Source: a virus (lineage: Duplodnaviria > Heunggongvirae > Uroviricota > Caudoviricetes). Taken from it: a stretch of DNA of 64,000 bases. This document shows, one piece after another, positions 1,712-25,268 of the stretch. Both the position numbers and the translations under genes were made by a program. The notes below the pieces were generated by a model. It had not been told where the DNA came from. It worked only from the letters and a program-made list of their open reading frames with translations, and made no database searches. Position 1 is the stretch's first letter. Each line of letters begins with the position of its first letter. Location of the stretch: IMG/VR virus record IMGVR_UViG_2671180747_000017; one strand, given 5' to 3'.

Positions 1712-4700
1712 ATGGCCTATTCAGAGGAACAGCGTCCTGAGGCGCAACTCGGTAACCAGAATCGTAACAGCCTGAACATTCAGCAACCCGGCGAAACTGA
1801 CAGCTATGAAGCATTTTTCTCTGATCCGAATCGCTGGAAGGATAACAGTACGTCGTTCAGCCTGGGCGATGTATTGCCAACAATGGGTAAAGGTTTCGCC
1901 CAGTCCGTCCGGGGAACAGGGGAAATGGCCCGTGGACTCGGTGATGCGATGATTCAGAGCCCGGTAAAAACAGGGGCGCGTATTTTAAATGAGTTCAGCC
2001 GTATGGGGCTGCCGGGTGTCGCAACTGTGCAGGATATTTTTGCCGGTGGCAGCAGGGGGGCTGATGAGGTCATCGATACCCTGCCTGATGGCAAAAACGC
2101 GGTTACTGATACTGTCGGTAAAGGTCTGAAGGCAACCGGTAAGGCTGTCAGTGATGGTGCTGAAGCCACTGATGAATGGCTGACCGGTAAGATGTCGCCG
2201 GGTGCAGTTCGTGCGCTGAATACGCCGATGACCGAAGGCTATGATGATTCTGCGGTCTGGGTGGCGAAGGGTGTAAACCTGATTGGTGCGCTTGTACCTG
2301 ATATGGTTGCTGGCGGTGTGGCTAAAAAGGTGGGTGATGTCACACTGCGAAAAATGCTGACCGCCGGGCTGGAGAAAAAATACATCGCGGCAGGGATGCA
2401 GCCGGAAAGAGCCACGGCACTGGCAGCAGAAGCTGTCGATAAAAAAATGCCGGATTTATTCCAGGCGGGCCTGATCACCCATTCCACAGCCAGTGCACAG
2501 GGGCAGAGTGCAATGGCGGCAGCAGATGCTGTTCTTAATGCGGATTACTCTGAGCTGGCGCAGTCACCGAAATTTCAGCAGACGTTTTTGTCCATTGACG
2601 CCGACCCGCAGCACGCACAGCTTACTGATCGCCAGAAAATGGATCTGGCAAAAGAGCGTGTTGCCGATGAGGTGCGCGCGCAGCTGGCAACCGATCCTGA
2701 ATTGCTGGCTGTGAATGCCATGGCGGCAAAACTGGGTGACGCACAACTGTTTAATCTGGTGACACGAGGCACAGCGAAGACCGTTAAAAGCGGCATTGTC
2801 AGAAATGCCACGGAACAGGGGGCGATTAATGCGGCGCAGGGCGGCTATTCACGCTATCAGGAAAACACGGCATTGCGTGAGACCGCCGGAATGGATGTGT
2901 CACCGTGGGAGGGCGTGGCTGACGCAACGATCGAAGGTGCAGCCTTTGGTGCTGCGATGGGGGCTCCATCCGGTGCGGTTGCCGGATATCGTGGCAGACG
3001 TCAGGCCGCAGAAGAAGCAGCCATGCGTGATGCTGAAACCGTGCAGCAGGACGACGCAGCCCCGCAACCAGAATCTGTTGATCCGGTGGCGCAGCATCGT
3101 GAATCCATGCAGGGGATGAATCGCGAGCAGCTTCTGGAGCAGTATGCTGATGCGGATATGGCAACAGAGGGGGACGCATCCGCAGCTCATCGCCGGGAAG
3201 CTGCCAGCCAGTTGTTGAATGAACTGGACGAACAGGCGAAGCGACAGGCTGTGATGAATGAGCTGAAGGCGAAGCCGCGTTCTGAACTGCTTGAGGAATA
3301 CCGCAGACTCAGCCAGAAAGAGGAGCGCACCGAGACTGAAGAACAACAGTTTCAGGCAATACGAGAAGTCATTCGCCCACAACAGGAAGTGACGCCGGAA
3401 GCACAGTCACAGCCTGAAAATGCGGAGGATGGTAACGGGAGCATTTACCCGACGGTGCGGTTCCGGGACCCGAATGAAGTCCGCATTGAAATTAACGGGA
3501 ATGGTGCGTCCAGACCAGCGGAACGCATTGAAAAGGTGCGCCCGGACAACCGTTATTTCACGGATGAGAAAAGCGCCATGGGGAGTGATGTTTTCCGTAA
3601 TGCCGCCGCCACCGGCCTGAAACCGTCCGTAGTGAAGAAAGGCGAGACTCAATATGCTGTTGAAATGGATAATCCTGCGTTCTCTGAAGATGTGGCAACG
3701 GAAACCATTAACACCCTGGCTGACGGAGAGCGTATTGCTGATGCTGACCCGATGGAGCAGCCCGCGTTCATGCGTGACCCACGATTCCGTGGTTTCACGG
3801 GGGATGATACGGAGGTACAGGCCCGCCTTGCCCGTGGCAACGTGCCGACGGCAGAGGAGCTTGTACGTTCACAGATGGCTGAAGGTGATGCCGGTCCGAC
3901 AGCACAGGAGTTAACTGAGCGTCCACGCCTGCCCGCTCCCGGCGATATTCATCCCGGACAGGGATATCCGTTACCGGGAGAGGTGGCGCGTACGCCGGAT
4001 GAGAATCAGGCAGGACGTGGTGGTCGTTTTACCACAACCGGTGAGGTTAAGGGCCAGAGTTTCCAGAAAGGACAAGCTCTGGCACCGGAAAACGCCGCTG
4101 GTCGCCAGGGGGAAACACTCGAGGGTGAAATGGTTCGTCGTGGTCTGCCGTCACCGGATGCGCAGAACGCGACAGCACCGGTACGTGAAGGGCTACCGGC
4201 TCCGGACATTACACACAATGTCCGTATGCCTCAGCCTGATCAGCTTCCCCGAACTGTTCGTAACTCATTGCCTGAGCTCGCACAGCAGGCAGAAGTACGT
4301 CGACAGGCCGGAGGAAATCGTGACATCCCGCAGCCTGAGACAATCGCACCTGAATCTGAAACAACAGTCGCTACTGACAGGGAAGCTACCGTGCGCGGAG
4401 GTGAAGTCAGGGGCAAAAAAATTGAAGACTTTGGTGAAGAAATTAAGGGCGCGGCAAAACACCGTTATGCACAGCTTGCTGAAACACTGGGTAAAACGCT
4501 GGAAGACAGGGATTATGTCACGCAACCGCTGAGCAAACTGTTCCCGAAACCGGACTACGCAAAACTGGCGAGCGAAGGGGCTGATGCTGACACCCTGGCA
4601 ATGATAGCGCTGTATCGTAGCGATATTCCGGTGAAGACGAAACACAATACGGCAGGCTGGGGGGAGAGCGTAAAAAAAGTACGACACAGTGTATCGGAAA

Positions 4701-17595: not shown

Positions 17596-18622
17596 TTATA
17601 TTTTTTCGATCTCGACCAGATTAGTGTGCTGCGGGTTTCCCTTCGCCAGTGGTGAAGGGCGCAGAGTGGTTAGCGTATTCACACAGCCGCCATGGTCGAT
17701 TTTATCGCCAGACATATTGGCCTCGTGCCAGGCTCCCTGGCCCATAGCGCTAACTCCAGGGAGAATACGTGGTGTTACTTTGGCTGGTAGCCGAACTTCG
17801 CCACGATGGTTAAACACCCGCACCATATCGCCGTTGGCAATCCCACGTTTCTGCGCATCTATAGGGTTGATCCACACCTCCTGACGGCAGGCAGCCTTCA
17901 GGAGATCAATATTGCCGTAGGTCGAGTGAGTACGGGATTTGTAATGGAAACCAAACAGTTGCAGTGGGAAGGTTCTACGTTCAGGGGAGTCCCAGCCTTC
18001 AAAGGTAGAGGCATAAACTGGCAGTGGGCTTATCACTTCATCTTTTTCCAGTTCCCAGGTACGGGCAATTTCCGCCAGCTTGCTGGAATAAATTTCAATC
18101 TTACCGGAAGGTGTTTTAAGTGGATTTGCCTCGGGGTCGTCACGAAATGCTTTGTAGGCGACAAAATGACCATTGGGATCTTTACGCTTATAGATACCCA
18201 TTTTTTTCAGTTCGTCGTAAGACGGTAACGCCGGATCTTTGGCAAGCATTTTGGCGTACAGATGTTGTAACCATTGTTCCTGCGTGCGACCTTCAGTGAA
18301 CTTTTGATAGACGTCAGGTCCAAGACGTTTCGCGACTTCACTCAGGATCCAGTAAATCGGTTTGCGTTCGAATTTTTCGCTGGTGACAGGCTGGAGGAAA
18401 ATGAGATATCCCATGTTACCGGCGTAGTCGTTAGGAATAATATCTTCCTGCTCAACGGTCATCAGGTCTGGCAGCAGAATGTCGGCATATTTTGCCGATG
18501 AGGTCATAAAGTTTTCGATGACCACAATCATTTCGCATTTCGATTCGTCCTGCAGAATTTCATGCGTTTTGTTGATGTCAGAATGCTGATTAACGAGGGT
18601 ATTTCCCGCGTAGTTCCAGATG
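17596..18622 (-). pseudogene. ynfE: ynfE C-terminal fragment (distal part of the disrupted gene)
   Basis: Paralogous to ynfF C-terminal half; the ynfE-derived reading frame begins at the junction (...SIWNYAGNTL) and the track ORF N-terminus is island-derived. Confidence 0.85.
18612..18622. repeat. attL core direct repeat AGTTCCAGATG
   Basis: Identical 11-mer at both ynfE breakpoints. Confidence 0.8.
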
Positions 18623-18687
18623 GACTCCATTGTCAGACGGATGGATGGACTTGAAGTAGTTGACTCAATGCTACTTAAGGTCCTGAT

Positions 18688-20271
18688 ATGACTGACATTA
18701 ACCATGATAATACTGTATATCCATCCAGTTCTTTCTCTGGGTCTCCCTATCTGTATCAGCAAGTCTGCACCTCAAGTCCTGACACAAGGCTGACACAAAT
18801 CAATCTACTCAGCGTAGCTAAGCCTCAGTTAGTCCGTAGAGCCAATGGTCGATATACTATCCGCTTCAGACTCAAGGGACAGACCATCCCGTTTCTTTCA
18901 GTATCGACCCGAAGCACAGACAGGAGAGTAGCCACAATGCGTCAGAGAGAGCTTGCAGCCACAGCTAAGTCCTTCATGTTGGATAGGCCTGATGTCTCGC
19001 TACAGGAGCTTACGGACCACCTCCGGTCTATGGCTGAGCAGTTCCTGACAGACGCCAGTGATGACTACTGGAATGGACTTGAGGTCGCTACTCTGGTGGA
19101 CGAGAAGTCCAACCTGAAGGAGCTAGCCGCTACGCAAGCCTTGAGTCTGGACCAGCAGAAGGGCATAAGGTTAGCGCTTGAAGTCCTGACCGCAGCACAG
19201 CAGAGGGTAGACACTGGTGATGCCTCTGGTCTGATTAAGCTGATTGATGATAATAACCATACTGATTACTCAACTATAGGCGACTCTACGTCAATTCTGA
19301 AGAATGAGCAGGGGGATAGACCAGCAGTTTTCACACAGGAGCGTCAGCCATCTGTGGTTTTTTCAAGCCTAGTGTCCTCGCTGCTGGCTGAGAAGGTCCA
19401 GACCCTGAAGTCCTCCAGCTACAAGGACCTGTCGTCCTCACTGAATACCGTCTCTCGGTTCTTACCTGAAGACATGGACCTGATGTCCCGCTCTGAGTGG
19501 CTGGCTGTCAGGGACTCCATGCTGGCTGCTGAGGTGAGACCATCGACAATCAACAAGCTGCTGACTAAGGCGAAGATGTGTCTTGATTATGGCCTGATGA
19601 ATGGGCAACTTGAGGGCCGCAACCCTATTGAACGGATGAAGCTGACCAAGGATATCGACTCCAAGCGCAGAGCGTTCACAGACGAGGAGCTGGAGAGACT
19701 TCTGGTCCGTGTTGAGTCTGAGTATCAGTTCACACGACACACGGCTCACACGACCTCTGAGGCCCGTAGATGGGCGTCTCTGGTGTCTGTGGTCACTGGC
19801 GCGAGGTCTGCTGAAGTCTGCCACCTGACTAAACGTGACATTGTCACCTTAGACAACGGTTTAACCTGCATCGACATCAATGAAGATGGGGACGGTAAGT
19901 CTGTGAAGAACAAACATTCAGTCCGACTTGTACCGCTGACCGATGGGGCCTGTGGGTTCGACCTGAAGTCCTTCCTTGAATGGGTAGACACGCAGCCTGA
20001 CGACGGCGGTCCTCTCTTCGGGATGACTCCGAGCGCCTACTCTAGCTGGTTTAACTCTAGGGTCCTGACTGAGGCACTGGGAGACGCTGAGAACGTTTCT
20101 CTCCATAGTCTGAGGCATTGGCTGGCGACCCGAATGAAAGAGCGTGGAGTCAATCTGGTGGACGCTCAGGGCATCTTAGGCCATAGCAGTCAGTCAATTA
20201 CGTATGACCTGTACGGGAAAGGACACGCTGTTGGTAGGCTGGCTGAGGTGCTGAAGACAGCTTTACTTTAA
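18688..20271 (+). CDS. int: Tyrosine recombinase / integrase of the island
   Basis: C-terminal HSLRHWLATR and LGHSSQSITYDLYGKGH (H-x-x-R and catalytic Tyr); N-terminal GRYTIRFRLKG arm-binding-like segment; true start uncertain because arm-type repeats lie at 18780-18798. Confidence 0.85.
   Translation: MTDINHDNTVYPSSSFSGSPYLYQQVCTSSPDTRLTQINLLSVAKPQLVRRANGRYTIRFRLKGQTIPFLSVSTRSTDRRVATMRQRELAATAKSFMLDRPDVSLQELTDHLRSMAEQFLTDASDDYWNGLEVATLVDEKSNLKELAATQALSLDQQKGIRLALEVLTAAQQRVDTGDASGLIKLIDDNNHTDYSTIGDSTSILKNEQGDRPAVFTQERQPSVVFSSLVSSLLAEKVQTLKSSSYKDLSSSLNTVSRFLPEDMDLMSRSEWLAVRDSMLAAEVRPSTINKLLTKAKMCLDYGLMNGQLEGRNPIERMKLTKDIDSKRRAFTDEELERLLVRVESEYQFTRHTAHTTSEARRWASLVSVVTGARSAEVCHLTKRDIVTLDNGLTCIDINEDGDGKSVKNKHSVRLVPLTDGACGFDLKSFLEWVDTQPDDGGPLFGMTPSAYSSWFNSRVLTEALGDAENVSLHSLRHWLATRMKERGVNLVDAQGILGHSSQSITYDLYGKGHAVGRLAEVLKTALL
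18780..18798. repeat. Two direct TGACACAA arm-type repeats, 11-bp spacing, left end of island
   Basis: TGACACAAGGCTGACACAA read directly; same motif triplicated at the right end. Confidence 0.7.
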
Positions 20272-20348
20272 GTAGGAAGACCCAAGGTGGAGACCATATA
20301 CGGCTTGATGGTTGAGACCTTGGGTCACTGAAGTCTGACTGAAGTTAG

Positions 20349-20376
20349 GGAGGGTGATAATAATCATAATCCCTCC
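20349..20376 (+). terminator. Hairpin downstream of integrase (GGAGGG, 16-nt loop, CCCTCC), no clear U-tract
   Basis: Read directly about 80 bp after the int stop. Confidence 0.25.
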
Positions 20377-20483
20377 TGACTATAGGCCCACTGGTTCGCC
20401 TTCGGCTGTCAGACTCTAAGTCTGTATGTGGTCTTATTTAAACTGGTTCCCTAACTCCAGTACTCCAAATTCCTATGGTCTCC

Positions 20484-20690
20484 TCTTGACATTCCTGTTT
20501 AACTGTGAGTCGCCTCTGGTCTCTCTTTATATATACTTCCTTAATTCCTGAGGCGTCTTTAGTCCTTGACATCCAGTCCAGCCTGTGAGTCACATCCGGT
20601 CCTCCCTCTTTATATATACTTCCTTAATTCCTAGGGTCGCCTTAATCCTTGACATCCAGTCCAGCCTGTGAGTCACATCCTGTCGCGCTA
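20484..20690. repeat. Three tandem direct repeats, period about 80-83 bp, each with TTGACAT...CTGTGAGTC; the first two also carry CTCTTTATATATACTTCCTTAATTCCT
   Basis: TTGACA at 20486, 20566, 20649; CTGTGAGTC at 20503, 20583, 20666; 27-mer at 20523 and 20606. Confidence 0.75.
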
Positions 20691-20713
20691 CTGTATGCAT
20701 CACCAGTGATGGA

Positions 20714-20736
20714 CTTGATTATCACTATAGGGGAAC
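20714..20736 (+). promoter_or_regulatory. T7-group phage RNA polymerase promoter-like site, copy 1 (predicted +1 G at 20730)
   Basis: TCACTATAGGG matches T7 consensus positions -8 to +3 exactly; upstream specificity region (ATTA) differs from T7/T3/K11/SP6; 35 bp upstream of an ORF with AGGAG RBS. Confidence 0.6.
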
Positions 20737-20764
20737 CAACTAATTCAACTACAGGAGATACTCT

Positions 20765-21133
20765 ATGGCACGACCAATCGCAACTCACGACAACACGTTC
20801 ACCAAAGCCTACTTGCAGCAGCACTGCGGGGACCTGCTGTCATTCGATGGTCAGGGCGACCTGAGTGGTTGGCTGGATGATGTCCTTACTGGTGCTGGTC
20901 GCCTGAACGAATCAATGGCAAGCAATACCAAGCCTGTCAGCCCATACTTGATTCTGACCCAACTACTAACGCACGACACATTAACTGTAAGCGCTGTACA
21001 GGAGTCCCTGAGCCGTAAGCGTGTTGCCTTGGGTGAACCTATGGTTTCAACTCGCTACGCTCGCTACGTCTATGCTACCGTCGTCAGCGCCAGTAAATCC
21101 GTCCAGTACCACGCCAGTAAAGCTGGTTCATGA
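20765..21133 (+). CDS. 122-aa protein, first gene downstream of phage-type promoter 1, unknown function
   Basis: ORF track; ACAGGAGATACTCT-ATG gives an AGGAG RBS at good spacing. Confidence 0.65.
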   Translation: MARPIATHDNTFTKAYLQQHCGDLLSFDGQGDLSGWLDDVLTGAGRLNESMASNTKPVSPYLILTQLLTHDTLTVSAVQESLSRKRVALGEPMVSTRYARYVYATVVSASKSVQYHASKAGS

Positions 21134-21142
21134 TTACGGACC

Positions 21143-21165
21143 CTAAACTATCACTATAGGGAGAC
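21143..21165 (+). promoter_or_regulatory. T7-group phage RNA polymerase promoter-like site, copy 2 (predicted +1 G at 21159)
   Basis: TCACTATAGGGAGA matches T7 consensus positions -8 to +6 (14/14); shares TATCACTATAGGG with copy 1; same strand. Confidence 0.65.
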
Positions 21166-21422
21166 CAGCCTCCGCCTCTGAGTCTGATGCGTCAGAACAT
21201 GCGAGCATCTGGTCAACCGACATTAAGTATCTCTCCTAAGTAATCAAGGCATGTGACCGCCTCTGTCAGACCTCGTGTATCGACCTCCAGCTCGTTAGCG
21301 TTCTCGTGTCTTCATTATGATTTGGGTCTATCACCGCTCACCATCTGGAAGTCCTTACAGCTCGTCCTGACATGCGGTCTCACCTTTATATGGCTGGAAG
21401 AGACCTCCTCTGTCAGACGCTA

Positions 21423-21470
21423 TCTAACCAACCCAGAAAACGGGTTTGTTAAAAAGATTAACATGGGTCT
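21423..21470. repeat. Direct repeat copy 1, about 47 bp (TCTAACCAACCCAGAAAACGGGTTTGTTAAAAAGATTAACATGGGTCT)
   Basis: Near-identical second copy at 21619-21665; contains short hairpin AACCC-AGAAAAC-GGGTT. Confidence 0.7.
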
Positions 21471-21490
21471 CCACCTTCATGAGGACCGCT

Positions 21491-21504
21491 CCGGAAATTT
21501 CCGG
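21491..21504. repeat. 14-bp perfect palindrome CCGGAAATTTCCGG between the two 47-bp repeats
   Basis: Read directly. Confidence 0.7.
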
Positions 21505-21618
21505 ACCGTGAACGGGTGGCTCTATCACAGGTCGCGAAAATGGAAACCTGCTTAACGTCCCCAAAACTGAGCAGTCACCATTCTTAACGGGTCCAAATTT
21601 GGGCGCGTTGGCGAGAAG

Positions 21619-21665
21619 TCTAACCAACCCAGAAAACGGGTTTGTTAAAAAAGTTAACATGGTCT
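21619..21665. repeat. Direct repeat copy 2, about 47 bp
   Basis: About 45 of 48 positions identical to copy 1; 196 bp spacing. Confidence 0.7.
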
Positions 21666-21793
21666 TCACACGACCTCATTACCTCAAGTCTTTCTGTATG
21701 TCTCCTGTTGCCTGTGAGTCTCCCTATCGTTGGGGGCTTGAGTAGGCTTTCAGGGTGTGACTTCAGGAGGCATAACAAAAGGAGTACAACGAT

Positions 21794-22552
21794 ATGTCAA
21801 CTCAACCCTTAATGAAGCATGAAGTAGTTCTTCCTGTCATCGTTGACGGCTATCACTGGGCCTGTAATCAGGACCGTATGTGGAACCTGAACGAGCTACA
21901 TAAAGAGCTTGAGCTTCCATCTGCTAAGGAGCCGGGTCAGTGGCGTTCTAGCGTCAGGACGCTTCTTGACCAAGATGCAAATCTGCATGTTGCTCATGGT
22001 GGTTCGACTCCGGGGACATGGGCTACTGAAGAGGCGGCTATTGCCTATGCGATGTGGGTCTCACCTGATTTCTACCTTAAGGTCATCCGTGCTTTCATCG
22101 CTTTACGTAACGACAAAGTGTCGGAAGCTAAGGCGCTGGCGCAGGACTCCAAGGAACTTAAGGGTCTCAAGCCTATAGCCCGTAACTGGCTGGAAAAGCT
22201 GGATAACCCGAAGCAGGGCCACACCCTGACAGAGTGTCTTAAGAATCTCGACTTCAGGTTAGGTACAAAGCTGGTATCAGCCAAGGCTCTTAATGCCGTA
22301 TTGAAGTCAGGGCGTATAGCTAATCCCTTCTATAGTCGCAAGCTGGACGGTCGAGGACAGCCTGTATTTGACATCTCGTCAGGTGGCTGGATGACCAGCT
22401 TCAATCCTAAGGGTCTGGAGAACGGCTATTACCGTCTTCAGGATAACCACTATAACGGTCAGGAGGGGCTTAAGGTCCTCACCAAGGGTTACGAGTGGCT
22501 TAAGTCCAACAAGGTCGAGCTGGTTCGTCTGTGCGCTAAGGGAGGACTCTAA
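21794..22552 (+). CDS. KilA-N domain protein (DNA-binding), 252 aa
   Basis: AAGGAG RBS; N-terminal ...LHVAHGGSTPGTWATEEAAIAYAMWVSPDFYLKV resembles KilA-N/APSES-type domain. Confidence 0.7.
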   Translation: MSTQPLMKHEVVLPVIVDGYHWACNQDRMWNLNELHKELELPSAKEPGQWRSSVRTLLDQDANLHVAHGGSTPGTWATEEAAIAYAMWVSPDFYLKVIRAFIALRNDKVSEAKALAQDSKELKGLKPIARNWLEKLDNPKQGHTLTECLKNLDFRLGTKLVSAKALNAVLKSGRIANPFYSRKLDGRGQPVFDISSGGWMTSFNPKGLENGYYRLQDNHYNGQEGLKVLTKGYEWLKSNKVELVRLCAKGGL

Positions 22553-22553
22553 G

Positions 22554-22721
22554 ATGATTGACCCGCGCACACCTGAGGGCCGCATGACTCTCCGTTACCG
22601 TGGCTACCGGACTGAAGTCCTCCTCAGAGAGCTTGGTCTAGACCCGGAAGATGAGACCCGCCAGCACCAATCCCGAGACGAGCTGATAGCGCAACTGGTC
22701 GCTATGAAACTGTCTGCCTAA
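22554..22721 (+). CDS. Small 55-aa protein, not in ORF track
   Basis: ATG immediately after the upstream stop (TAAGATG coupling); MIDPRTPEGRMTLRYRGYRTEVLLRELGLDPEDE...; read by eye. Confidence 0.4.
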   Translation: MIDPRTPEGRMTLRYRGYRTEVLLRELGLDPEDETRQHQSRDELIAQLVAMKLSA

Positions 22722-22817
22722 TTTTAAAACCTTTTGAGATGACCGATGCGGGGAGACCCGTAGGCGCTACTGCGTCTGCGATACCGATAGTCTCAACTCT
22801 CAAGAGGAGAATTACCT

Positions 22818-23309
22818 ATGATGTTCAACAACAACAACTGGAAGCTGTCAGTCACCGACATCAACCTTTATGAAAACACTGTGAGTCTGGACGGTCAGTC
22901 CTATCCGTTGTCGCTCGCTATCAAGACCCTGATTCCGGGCTACCTGTCAGGACTGCCGTCTACCAGCCGTGAGTCTATGGAGTTACTGGAAGCTCTGGCT
23001 GAAGCTGGTGTAGCTATTGGCAACTTCTTCAGTAATGACCTGATGACCGCCTATGGTCGCCGCCAGCAGAACAAGCGAGCTGAGGCTGAGCGTATCGCTA
23101 AAGAGCAGCGCATTCAGGCCGAGCGCATGCGTGAAGAGAACATGACTGATGCAGAGTGGCAGAAAGAGCTACAGCGCCGCGAACAGGTCAAAGCTGAACG
23201 CCGGACCTATGGTGAGAACCTCCGCAGTGCTACCCATTCCGCTGGTCGCTCCCGTGCCGCTATTGTCGCTGACCTTGAGTCAGGCGGTAACTGGCTGGAC
23301 AGCTTATAA
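22818..23309 (+). CDS. 163-aa protein with basic coiled-coil C-terminal half, unknown function
   Basis: ORF track; GAGGAG RBS; Arg/Glu/Gln-rich heptad-like segment AEAERIAKEQRIQAERMREE. Confidence 0.6.
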   Translation: MMFNNNNWKLSVTDINLYENTVSLDGQSYPLSLAIKTLIPGYLSGLPSTSRESMELLEALAEAGVAIGNFFSNDLMTAYGRRQQNKRAEAERIAKEQRIQAERMREENMTDAEWQKELQRREQVKAERRTYGENLRSATHSAGRSRAAIVADLESGGNWLDSL

Positions 23310-23393
23310 GACACACAGTCCCTGACCCGATGTTAGGGACTCCTCAGTTTTGAGGACTCACAGTATTTAAACTAATTTAGGAGATTGATTATT

Positions 23394-24380
23394 ATGACGA
23401 TTAAAGACGCTTTCCAGTTTGGCATTGAGCCAGTACGCATCACCGATACCGACAACATTCAGGTCAATGAAGGTCTGCCGACTAACGCTGACCCGCAGGT
23501 CTACGCCCTCCAGTTAGCTAAGACGGTTAAGGCTATGCTGAACGGTGTACTTAAGGACGCTCAAGAGAACATCCCGTTCCCTGTAGAAGTCCTGCCGACC
23601 CGTAACAGCTTACCGACCCCAATCATTGCCCACACTCTGACTGACCGCTCTGTGGTCGTTCCTGTCCGTGGTGGCAAGCGACCTGAAGTCGTGACCGTTC
23701 CGTCTGGACAAGAAATCGTGGTCGAACCAATCGAGCAGGCTATTCTCATCTCTGAGCAGACCAAGCTCTGGGACGCCAAGTCATCCACCGGATTCACTCA
23801 GGGCACACTTCAGCAGGACGCTATGAACATCTGTGAGAATGTGGTCCGTACCATCAACGCTCGCATGGTCGACGTTCTGGAATCCTCTAAGCTGCTGAAG
23901 ACCGTAGAGCTTCCTGTCCTGACTGGTAGCCTGACCGCTAAGGCAGACGCTATCATGGACGCTCTGTATGAGAACACAGAGTCTTCTTTCGGTTCTGAGG
24001 TGTCTGACTACGGTATTATCGCTCATGAGAGCCAACTGAAAGCACTGTCCCGTCTGGCTGCTAAGCAAGGCTTCTCCGGTGAAGACGCTATCGTCGATAT
24101 GCTGGGAACAGACATCGCCTACTACAACGGTGAAGACAAGGGTGTATTCATGCTGGCTAAACGCTTCACGGCTCTGAGCTTCGGTTGCTTCCGTCACGAT
24201 GGCGAGAATATTACGGTCGTCCTTTCACGTGATGGCGACTCTCAGTCCCACGACTTGGAAATCCTCGGTAAAGTGTTCGTTGTCGCTGAAGCTGCTACGA
24301 CCATCAAGATGGGCACTGGCTCAGCTACTGCCGTCCTGCCTGTAGTCAAACGCCTGAAGTTCACCAAGACCGAAGCGTAA
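23394..24380 (+). CDS. 328-aa protein, unknown function (largest island cargo gene)
   Basis: ATG 23394 with TAGGAG RBS (track start 23385 is TTG); no motif I can assign. Confidence 0.65.
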   Translation: MTIKDAFQFGIEPVRITDTDNIQVNEGLPTNADPQVYALQLAKTVKAMLNGVLKDAQENIPFPVEVLPTRNSLPTPIIAHTLTDRSVVVPVRGGKRPEVVTVPSGQEIVVEPIEQAILISEQTKLWDAKSSTGFTQGTLQQDAMNICENVVRTINARMVDVLESSKLLKTVELPVLTGSLTAKADAIMDALYENTESSFGSEVSDYGIIAHESQLKALSRLAAKQGFSGEDAIVDMLGTDIAYYNGEDKGVFMLAKRFTALSFGCFRHDGENITVVLSRDGDSQSHDLEILGKVFVVAEAATTIKMGTGSATAVLPVVKRLKFTKTEA

Positions 24381-24385
24381 GACCA

Positions 24386-24625
24386 ATGGGTAAGAGCATT
24401 AGTAAAGGCTTCAGGTCCATCGCCAAGGGCCTGACAGGTGGTGGTGGGACTCAAGGTGGGGCTTCGGTCCCGCCTCCTGTAGCTCCTCCTGTAGCTCCTC
24501 CAGATGACGCTCAGCAAGCTGTAGTCGATACCCAAGGTCAGGAGACCGAGGGAGGTAAGACCATGAGCAGAGGTAAGTCTGGACTGAATATCAGCAGGAC
24601 TTCAGGTGGTGGCCTGTCACTGTGA
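24386..24625 (+). CDS. 79-aa Gly/Pro-rich basic protein
   Basis: ORF track; GGGGTQGGASVPPPVAPPVAPP low-complexity; follows 328-aa gene by 5 nt. Confidence 0.45.
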   Translation: MGKSISKGFRSIAKGLTGGGGTQGGASVPPPVAPPVAPPDDAQQAVVDTQGQETEGGKTMSRGKSGLNISRTSGGGLSL

Positions 24626-24863
24626 TTAAGACATCTATACAGCCTGTGGAGGGTGGACGATATCAAGCAACAATCTGGATGACACGCAGAGTCTATAAGC
24701 GGCTATGCTGGTCACTGGCTGAAGCTGAACAGTGGGTGAGACGTAAAGTGCCTACCGTTCAATCGTTCCAATCATCATGATAACTATGGTCTGGACCAAT
24801 GGTCTGGACCTTTGTTTTGTACTAGTTATCTAGTGCAGTAGTACAATAGACGAAGGAGGCTTT

Positions 24864-25019
24864 ATGTCTATGACTTCCGCAGACCTAAGGTCCCTCCTGA
24901 CTCTGGTCTATAAACTCGTGTTCCTCTCTGTGGGTCTCTATATGGTCCTCTCCGGTCGACTCGGTGTGAATGTATTCGACACTCTGTCTAAGGCTGTGGG
25001 TGGGCTTCTGGGGGCTTAG
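24864..25019 (+). CDS. 51-aa hydrophobic membrane peptide
   Basis: Strongest RBS in the island (GAAGGAGG, 6 nt before ATG); one predicted TM helix LLTLVYKLVFLSVGLYMVLSG; read by eye, not in ORF track. Confidence 0.5.
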   Translation: MSMTSADLRSLLTLVYKLVFLSVGLYMVLSGRLGVNVFDTLSKAVGGLLGA

Positions 25020-25169
25020 GTTTGGACTCACAGTGGGACCGATGGTTTCTGACAGAAAAATGTGAATGACCATCTAATACATTAAGCCAGCAGACTTCCC
25101 CCATAGCCCGCCTCAAGTCCAGACCGAGGCCACCGGGGGGCTGACCAGCCGTCTAGACATCCCGTCTAA

Positions 25170-25200
25170 TGACACAAGGCTGACACAAAGCCTGACACAA
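25170..25200. repeat. Three direct TGACACAA arm-type repeats (11-12 bp spacing), right end of island
   Basis: TGACACAAGGCTGACACAAAGCCTGACACAA read directly. Confidence 0.7.
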
Positions 25201-25257
25201 AGTCCTTGACTCAATGCAGGACCTCAGGCCTACTAAGGGTCCGCTTCAAGTCCTTGA

Positions 25258-25268
25258 AGTTCCAGATG
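25258..25268. repeat. attR core direct repeat AGTTCCAGATG
   Basis: Identical to 18612-18622. Confidence 0.8.

Follow-up and report, generated by a model that had tools for sequence, protein, structure and literature searches.

What is the function of a tandem repeat that stands between an integrase gene and a phage-type promoter on an island of the E. coli chromosome? The question arises from a stretch of 64,000 nucleotides (IMG/VR virus record IMGVR_UViG_2671180747_000017), the whole of which was analysed and is called the window here. An initial annotation, made from the letters alone, had described three tandem repeats of about 80 bp and had proposed that they represent iterons, the mimic of a packaging signal or binding sites of a multimeric regulator. 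Our analysis leads to a different emphasis. The array is a real, constrained and non-coding tandem cis-element which is best read as promoter- or operator-like, and its place in the element is best read as that of a control region which is kept by selection without being coding, situated on the host-polymerase side of what appears to be a small phage satellite. Three features had not been part of the initial annotation, namely a LexA box abutting the array, a -10-like TATACT in its AT-rich block and the resemblance of the island to a phage satellite.

Structure of the repeat array

The array comprises window positions 20468-20688 and consists of three tandem units with start-to-start distances of 80 and 83 bp. 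Tandem Repeats Finder reported a period of 83 with 2.0 copies and 91% matches at 20523-20684, and a repeat search returned two copies of 82 nt with 89% identity as well as a three-copy family around CTGTGAGTC spaced 80 and 83 bp. Together they confirm the three repeats originally described and resolve them into two full units and one more diverged 5′ unit, which the repeat search adds, with a core of 26 bp that is present three times.

Each unit is composed of TTGACAT (box 1), a spacer of ten nucleotides (N10) and CTGTGAGTC (box 2), and both boxes were found in all three units, as had been claimed. TTGACAT starts at 20486, 20566 and 20649, and CTGTGAGTC at 20503, 20583 and 20666. Unit 1 (type A, 20468..20542, + strand) contains box 1 at 20486-20492, the spacer TCCTGTTTAA and box 2 at 20503-20511. 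Unit 2 (type B, 20543..20625, + strand) contains box 1 at 20566-20572, the spacer CCAGTCCAGC and box 2 at 20583-20591, and the truncated unit 3 (type B, 20626..20688, + strand) has its boxes at 20649-20655 and 20666-20674. The AT-rich block assigned to two units is indeed found in two of them, its length being 26 nt instead of the 27 bp given before. This block, CTCTTTATATATACTTCCTTAATTCC, lies on the + strand at 20523-20548, starting in unit 1 and harboring TATACT at 20532-20537, and again at 20606-20631, starting in unit 2 and harboring TATACT at 20615-20620. Unit 3 has no AT block, and a LexA box is located at about the homologous offset instead.

Searched with 0 mismatches, TTGACA-N14-TGAGTC occurs at these three sites only within the 64 kb. 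The array is oriented rightward, pointing at orf122, and its end is separated by 25 bp from position -17 of phage-type promoter 1, which lies downstream. The array is therefore located, as stated in the initial annotation, immediately upstream of phage-type promoters, whose transcriptional starts (+1) are at 20730 and 21159.

Taken in either orientation (GACTCACAG/CTGTGAGTC), the sequence of box 2 is present in 7 copies in the 64 kb, compared to 0.37 expected, all of them inside the island (20503-25033), with five in one orientation followed by two in the other. The four GACTCACAG copies outside the array are poorly kept in relatives. A polar GACTCACAG motif spanning the whole island was considered and dropped, as the 7 copies here are matched by only 0-1 extra copies in related islands. 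Furthermore, AGTCCTTGAC is common to the right att arm and repeat unit 2.

The island and its gene content

The window is a piece of E. coli chromosome, and the array is part of an island of 6646 bp inserted in ynfE, a gene in which, according to one study, an integrative element integrates. An 11-bp direct repeat, AGTTCCAGATG, flanks the island and forms the left (18612..18622) and the right (25258..25268) att core. Joining the flanks in silico restores an intact ynfE with 100% identity. At least 80% of the joined sequence is covered in 5108 of 5426 genomes. Close to the att cores, CTGACACAARG is found three times on the right (25170-25217) and twice on the left (18660-18800), resembling arm-type sites of integrases, and the 12-mer TTGACTCAATGC lies about 40 bp inside each core. 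Four metagenome contigs of 6.6-6.9 kb (L031, L036, L040 and L043) were considered as circular excised forms and rejected as assembly bubbles, each comprising exactly the island, flanked at either end by about 45-55 bp of ynfE. Such contigs are the signature of mixed populations of island-positive and island-negative E. coli, not of circles.

The genes are arranged in the order tyrosine integrase, orf122, a variable gene (here coding for a KilA-N protein), orf163, orf331 and the gp7.3-like orf79. The integrase ORF (int) extends over 18688..20271 on the + strand, its true start probably being located further downstream, since other records annotate 451-459 aa. The gene orf122 (20765..21133, + strand) is the first gene of a module driven by phage polymerase, and the array is situated just upstream of its phage-type promoter. 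Its sole match is phrog_23123, a family of unknown function, and searches against Pfam, PDB sequences and PADLOC gave no match. The coiled-coil protein encoded by orf163 (22818-23309) may be a scaffold. The product of orf331 (23385..24380, + strand) is an HK97-fold major capsid protein: an AlphaFold model from a shallow alignment was unusable (pLDDT 37), and the model from an alignment of 39 sequences, with a pLDDT of 83, matched HK97-fold capsids and encapsulins in Foldseek with probability 1.0 and 212 matches at E≤0.001. The last gene, orf79 (24386..24625, + strand), encodes a homologue of the T7 gp7.3-like virion assembly/adsorption protein. Genes for Rep, Par, primase, helicase, initiator or small terminase are absent among the island proteins. 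Across islands, the variable slot is occupied by KilA-N, AP2, pRha or other genes, and the array is unchanged. Six island copies add up to 39.9 kb, which is about one helper genome length.

Signals shared with T7-like phages

Two promoters of the type used by single-subunit RNA polymerases are located on the + strand. Promoter 1 (20713..20735, +1 at 20730) reads GATTATCACTATA followed by GGGGAA and drives orf122; its upstream sequence is also given as TATCACTATA, followed by GGGG. Promoter 2 (21142..21164, +1 at 21159) reads AACTATCACTATA followed by GGGAGA, and between -17 and +6 its core does not differ from the promoter that precedes the capsid gene in phiYIO1-1, an Escherichia phage which is a K1F-like podovirus of the Kayfunavirus type with about ten CTAAACTATCACTATAGG promoters. 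The promoters of related islands are T3-like (ACCCTCACTATAGGGA), exactly of the T3 type (AATTAACCCTCACTAAAGGGAGA) or ACTATCACCTTAGGAGA, with two sometimes arranged in tandem. This implies that each island would be tuned to one or several helper polymerases, some relatives having two or three specificities. In the tandem pairs, the T3-like ACCCTCACTATAGGGA stands beside a K1F-like ACTATCACTATAGGGA; promoter sites in relatives are found at 3792-3840 and 4354-4400 of L021, at 5651-5700 of L026 and at 2156 and 2764 of L046. Promoter 2 is followed by a non-coding leader of about 600 nt (21165-21793) with blocks kept in all family members including that from Rouxiella, for instance GCCTCTGAGTCTGATGCGTCAGAAC and the end ...GGGTGTGACTCAGGGTGCAAAACAAAAAGGAG. 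The leader has no Rfam match and could be a structured RNA or an origin of the T7 type.

Both ends of the island carry sequences resembling the terminal repeat of the helper type. Its left part is mimicked on the + strand at 25098..25125 (CCCCATAGCCCGCCTCAAGTCCAGACC), matching positions 27-54 of the phiYIO1-1 repeat. The sequence at 18729..18756, also on the + strand, mimics the right edge of a terminal repeat of the T7 type, including the pause-site-like TATCTGTAT, and corresponds to positions 188-212 of the phiYIO1-1 repeat and to 146-166 of T7. In the comparison with phiYIO1-1, each end match beats 500 of 500 shuffles. Since the att cores split the two halves, the terminal-repeat-like sequence would be complete only after excision, spanning attP. 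Behind the int stop codon, two hairpins are encoded on the + strand, one with 19-nt arms (20279-20326) and one of the form GGGAGGG-TGATAATAATCATAAT-CCCTCC (20348-20376, within a feature at 20348-20384). The latter has an exact match of 32 bp to phiYIO1-1, on the opposite strand there, and matches of 28-32 bp in 154 records of T7-like phages. In the two phages inspected, Peacock and phiYIO1-1, the element belongs to the gene 19.5 leader and has a distance of about 450-500 bp to the right end of the genome.

On the basis of the helper-type promoters, the capsid gene, the terminal-repeat mimic and the other promoter specificities of its relatives, the island appears to be an undescribed capsid-encoding satellite of T7-like (Kayfunavirus) phages. 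It combines an integrase and att sites with helper-specific expression signals, structural genes and a putative packaging site of the helper type. A literature search found neither such an element nor any satellite of T7-like phages described in the searchable papers.

Distribution of the array and selection acting on it

The array was detected in 81 of 5426 complete E. coli genomes, in Shigella flexneri and in 16 contigs from gut or food metagenomes. All of the 23 readable loci contain either 2 or 3 units, repeated every 80-84 bp, and the core TTGACA-N14-TGAGTC is invariant in 63 of their 63 units. Two diverged islands, L048 and L049, have an orf122 that is just 82-84% identical, yet they carry two units 80-81 bp apart; box 2 is shrunk to (C)TGAGTC, and the core is the same except for the last unit of L048, which has TGAGTG.

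Diversity (pi) was computed pairwise from 15 islands with three units. Values were 0.177 for the third codon positions of int, 0.022 for the array minus its N10 spacers and 0.007 for the two boxes alone. Diversity of the array is about 8-fold below that of synonymous sites in the adjacent int, and the array is therefore under constraint. The N10 spacers of units 2 and 3 reach 0.155, and that of unit 1 has a pi of 0. This pattern is that of two putative contact boxes with a spacer of which the length alone is constrained, while the sequence of the N10 in units 2 and 3 changes at a roughly neutral rate. Most of the unit beyond the two boxes is conserved as well.

With orf122 present in 84 genomes and the array in 81, the two are co-inherited and almost always occur together. 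One locus (L007) has kept the array and lost orf122. The islands L046 and L026 encode homologues of orf122 and have no boxes; the distant L046 retains one AT block. Insertion sequences of the IS3 family and IS100 were observed at two loci. At L006 (2650-6002) they lie inside the AT block of unit 1 and part this unit from unit 2, and at L007 (4769-5997) the insertion is located just upstream of the array. L007 also shows a tandem AAGACTCTAAGTAAGACTGAAGTT array after its promoter, in place of the lost orf122.

No array was found in the ynfE island of Citrobacter koseri, with which the whole int-proximal flank up to ...CCAAATT is common, nor in the Rouxiella island and the E. coli islands at other sites. 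Its absence from these sister islands makes the array an accessory, lineage-specific module. The comparison of copy numbers suggested in the initial annotation gives a divided answer: 2 or 3 copies are kept throughout the E. coli/Shigella ynfE sub-lineage, and conservation does not extend to the sister islands. When IMG/VR and the GTDB species genomes were searched with the box motif, only this island and Shigella flexneri were returned, and a text search with the box sequences returned unrelated papers only.

The array is not coding sequence, an outcome that the initial annotation had named as refuting its proposal. Only ORFs of 51-71 aa clip it, and none spans the repeats. Neither of its periods, 80 and 83 bp, is divisible by 3, and variation is clustered in the N10 spacers without codon periodicity or an excess at third positions.

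Promoter and transcript features

TTGACA matches the -35 consensus at six of six positions in all three units, which is worth 8.4 bits. It is followed after 14 nt by a TG at -15/-14, the extended -10 position for a 17-bp spacer, in every unit and every lineage including L048 and L049. A usable -10 hexamer at 16-19 bp is absent from the array units. The hexamers at this position are GTCACA, TCACAT, GTCGCC and TCGCCT, the key A at -11 is missing, and the -10 scores range from -0.6 to -3.6 bits. A consensus scan found no sigma-70 site in the array, and a position-weight scan assigned 6.0-7.6 bits to the units, all from the -35 box, compared to 11.6-14.6 bits for the T7 promoters A1-A3. Both scans agree with the earlier observation of a perfect -35 followed by no acceptable -10 at 16-19 bp, and they rule out canonical sigma-70 promoters within the units on either strand. 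Each unit is best read as a split sigma-70 cassette with a perfect -35, a free spacer of fixed length and a TG, lacking the -10 hexamer. Sites for sigma-32, sigma-E, sigma-54, sigma-28, CRP, FNR, PhoP, DnaA, IHF and Fur were rejected in a check by eye only, because spacing or key bases do not fit. Class II pause sites of T7 polymerase were likewise rejected, ATCCTGTC in the units not being ATCTGTT; the real pause-like site is located at 18749-18757.

The TATACT of the AT block, which is TATATT in relatives, scores 7.1 bits as a -10 element and lies 40-43 bp downstream of TTGACA. A decent -35 at 16-18 bp from it is absent in this lineage. One of the two hexamers is present in the AT block of every lineage, and the single homologous AT block of the distant island L046 forms a credible sigma-70 promoter, TTGGCT-16-TATACT, with 11.3 bits (T7 A1, 11.6 bits). 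The AT blocks have an AT content of just 68% over 40 nt, and other places in the island are more AT-rich.

The + strand of the array is C-rich and G-poor, its C/G ratio being 2-2.5 across some 280 nt, and it consists of 65-69% pyrimidine, values within the top 1-5% of the window. With C exceeding G over an unstructured stretch of at least 80 nt, it is a candidate Rho-utilisation (rut) site by base composition. RNA folding gave no significant structure of the array on either strand (fold z-score -1.7), and the island has no Rfam match at E≤1.

Predicted LexA boxes

Possible LexA operators were searched with a position-weight matrix derived from a set of known SOS boxes, which themselves score 13.2-27.2 bits. 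The palindrome TACTGTATGCATCACCAGTG (CTG-N10-CAG) at 20689..20708 directly follows the last repeat unit, between the array and phage-type promoter 1. Its 17.3 bits are the second best score in the 64 kb and fall within the range of the training sites, so that it is a predicted LexA operator. The best site of the window with 23.5 bits is TACTGTATATCCATCCAGTT at 18711-18730, which abuts the -10 of a putative int promoter (CTGATA-17-GATAAT, 18683..18730, + strand) predicted by the consensus scan. The third best site reaches 13.9 bits; the top two are both located in the island, and both recur in related islands. L049 carries a perfect canonical box, TACTGTATGTCCATACAGTT, at the same position after its last unit, and L048 possesses the array and lacks the second LexA box. 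Relative to a hypothetical start site of unit 3, the box would cover about +8 to +23, and it lies about 60 nt downstream of any start from an AT block. A LexA operator at this place would imply traffic of host polymerase, and the only polymerase-like signals upstream are those of the array and int. The two boxes together suggest SOS control of a satellite of virulent phages.

Proposed function and alternative explanations

These features led us to the tentative view that the array is a control array for orf122 read by host polymerase or a regulator, and we rate its chances somewhat short of even. In an uninfected cell, sigma-70 holoenzyme, or a regulator reading the same two boxes, would dock on the two or three in-phase units. 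LexA at 20689-20708, together with the C-rich and G-poor transcript, would bar host transcription from int or the array from entering the phage-polymerase module, and SOS induction or another factor would permit weak host-driven expression of orf122. During infection, the helper polymerase would fire both phage-type promoters whatever the array does. The outcome could be weak conditional host transcription of orf122 or insulation of the module until SOS induction or infection occurs. Binding of RNA polymerase or LexA, as well as the direction of the regulatory effect, is what we infer from the arrangement of these sites. The control-array reading is supported by the -35/TG geometry, by the constraint, by the -10 of the AT block, which is part of a predicted promoter in L046, by the LexA sites, by the co-occurrence with orf122, by the rightward orientation and by the base composition of the + strand. 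It is weakened by the lack of a -10, by unit scores far below those of T7 A1-A3 and by a TATACT without a -35. Conservation outside the boxes also weakens it, since a plain promoter needs none, as do the distance of about 60 nt between AT-block starts and the LexA box, the missing second box in L048 and sister satellites without an array.

The main rival, possible but clearly less probable, is that the array serves as a set of operators for a sequence-specific DNA-binding protein distinct from polymerase, which would bind cooperatively to the bipartite TTGACAT-N10-CTGTGAGTC on two or three units about 8 helical turns apart. It is compatible with a host-polymerase control array, the two not being mutually exclusive. 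Two boxes at a fixed spacing with a freely evolving spacer, the phasing of 80-83 bp kept in the diverged L048 and L049, the tight co-occurrence with orf122 and a motif found nowhere else in the 64 kb all fit such an array. Orf122, as an autoregulator or an excision/directionality factor, is the obvious binder, and an early protein of the helper or a host factor would be others. Orf122 has no recognisable DNA-binding domain, however, and neither the array without orf122 in L007 nor the homologues without boxes in L046 and L026 are expected for its operator. Furthermore, two dissimilar boxes would be odd for a homodimer, and the perfect -35 with a TG in register would have to be a coincidence. 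Binding of a multimeric regulator, as first proposed, stays viable in this form. The KilA-N protein, which had been nominated as the binder, is hardly suited to this role, since the gene in this slot differs from island to island and the array is constant. An improbable alternative is a transcriptional insulator, in which the C-rich, G-poor and unstructured RNA acts as a loading site for Rho and halts host read-through from int, the fast phage polymerase being insensitive. The skewed composition of the sense strand, the lack of significant RNA structure and the location directly after int and its hairpins would agree with this, but degenerate rut sites cannot explain near-invariant boxes, a fixed spacer length and a pi of 0.022, and sister islands do without the array.

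The remaining explanations have still smaller chances. A replication origin made of iterons and AT-rich unwinding blocks would account for the alternation of direct repeats with AT-rich blocks, and a satellite needs to be replicated during infection. The iterons for replication or partition proposed in the initial annotation are nevertheless quite unlikely: the period is 80-83 bp and not about 22 bp, Rep and Par genes are absent from the island, as are genes for an initiator, primase or helicase, and related satellites lack the array. In addition, in an origin of the T7 type the phage promoter comes first and reads into an AT-rich stretch, whereas here the array precedes a promoter that reads away from it, and its AT blocks are not the most AT-rich places of the island. 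A functionless recent tandem duplication would be in line with the restriction to one lineage, the varying copy number of 2-3 and the IS insertions in or next to the array of two genomes. It is very improbable given a diversity 8-fold under that of int synonymous sites while array-internal spacers vary freely, and given boxes and a period that are kept in islands with an orf122 of just 82-84% identity. We give the least credence to a packaging signal or a sequence imitating a helper DNA end. Read on the opposite strand, box 2 gives GACTCACAG, which resembles the TCTCACAG left end of T7-type genomes and of which all 7 copies lie within the island. In a comparison with the complete phiYIO1-1 genome, though, the units score no better than shuffles, other islands do not retain the additional copies of GACTCACAG, and the significant terminal-repeat mimic (0 of 500 shuffles for each end) is found at the att junction instead. 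A resemblance of the units to the right-end region of the phage (CTAGTGTCGCCT...TCCTTGAC) was also lost in a whole-genome Smith-Waterman comparison with shuffles.

The control-array reading can be extended to a more specific and rather unlikely proposal, according to which the array is the host-facing switch of an undescribed class of satellites living on virulent T7-like (Kayfunavirus) phages. Two or three in-phase -35/TG boxes without a -10 would poise host polymerase, or a factor of the helper or satellite, under the gate of LexA and would couple SOS or early infection to orf122, possibly the trigger of excision, before the helper polymerase takes over. If true, this would amount to a regulatory logic that is new and for which no counterpart has been described among other satellites. 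The repeat itself is of moderate interest, and its satellite context is more interesting. As the sole clearly constrained cis-element between a putatively SOS-controlled int and the phage-polymerase module, the array is the place to look for how the satellite stays silent, senses the helper or DNA damage and starts its cycle. Should the units be docking sites of a polymerase or regulator, they would offer a compact and testable model of the hand-over between host and phage polymerase, as well as a useful part for phage-responsive genetic circuits.

Comparison with known systems

T7-like phages are textbook examples of strictly virulent phages, and the early host-polymerase promoters A1, A2 and A3 at the left genome end of T7 are a close parallel in arrangement. 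Like the array, they form a tandem of three elements that all point the same way and carry a TTGAC(A/T) -35, placed between the terminal-repeat side and the first genes and beside a promoter for the phage polymerase. In contrast to the units of the array, they have good -10 hexamers and the higher scores noted above. Their spacing is about 125 bp compared to 80-83 bp, there is no sequence similarity, and only the array is followed by a LexA box.

LexA-repressed promoters are known from other mobile elements, such as those of integron integrases and colicins. The island resembles them in having CTG-N10-CAG at or just downstream of a promoter, namely at the -10 of int and after the array, but its second, predicted box has no canonical promoter ahead. 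The late promoters of P2 and P4 depend on an activator and carry a TGT-N12-ACA dyad at about -55, which is bound by Ogr/delta. They share with the island a -10-like element without a usable -35, a conserved upstream element and the satellite context. In contrast to this dyad, the boxes of the island are asymmetric and include a perfect -35 hexamer, and no activator gene was identified.

An iteron-type origin has several repeats of 17-22 bp at about helical spacing next to the gene of the cognate initiator. Such plasmid origins and lambda cosB (R3-I1-R2-R1) resemble the array in that repeated protein sites are set amid AT-rich, bendable segments. They differ from the island, which has no small terminase or Rep gene, a period of 80-83 bp and its end mimic elsewhere.

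The nearest relatives by context only are capsid-forming PICIs, PICMI and PLE, satellites of which some exploit virulent phages (PMC10803314, 10.1101/2022.09.08.507074). The island is likewise small, bears an integrase and has its own capsid gene, and most other virion and packaging functions, the gp7.3-like gene apart, would come from the helper. It differs from these satellites in its T7-like helper, its size of 6.6 kb and a terminal-repeat mimic split by att, and its induction appears to be wired through promoters specific to the single-subunit RNA polymerase of the helper.
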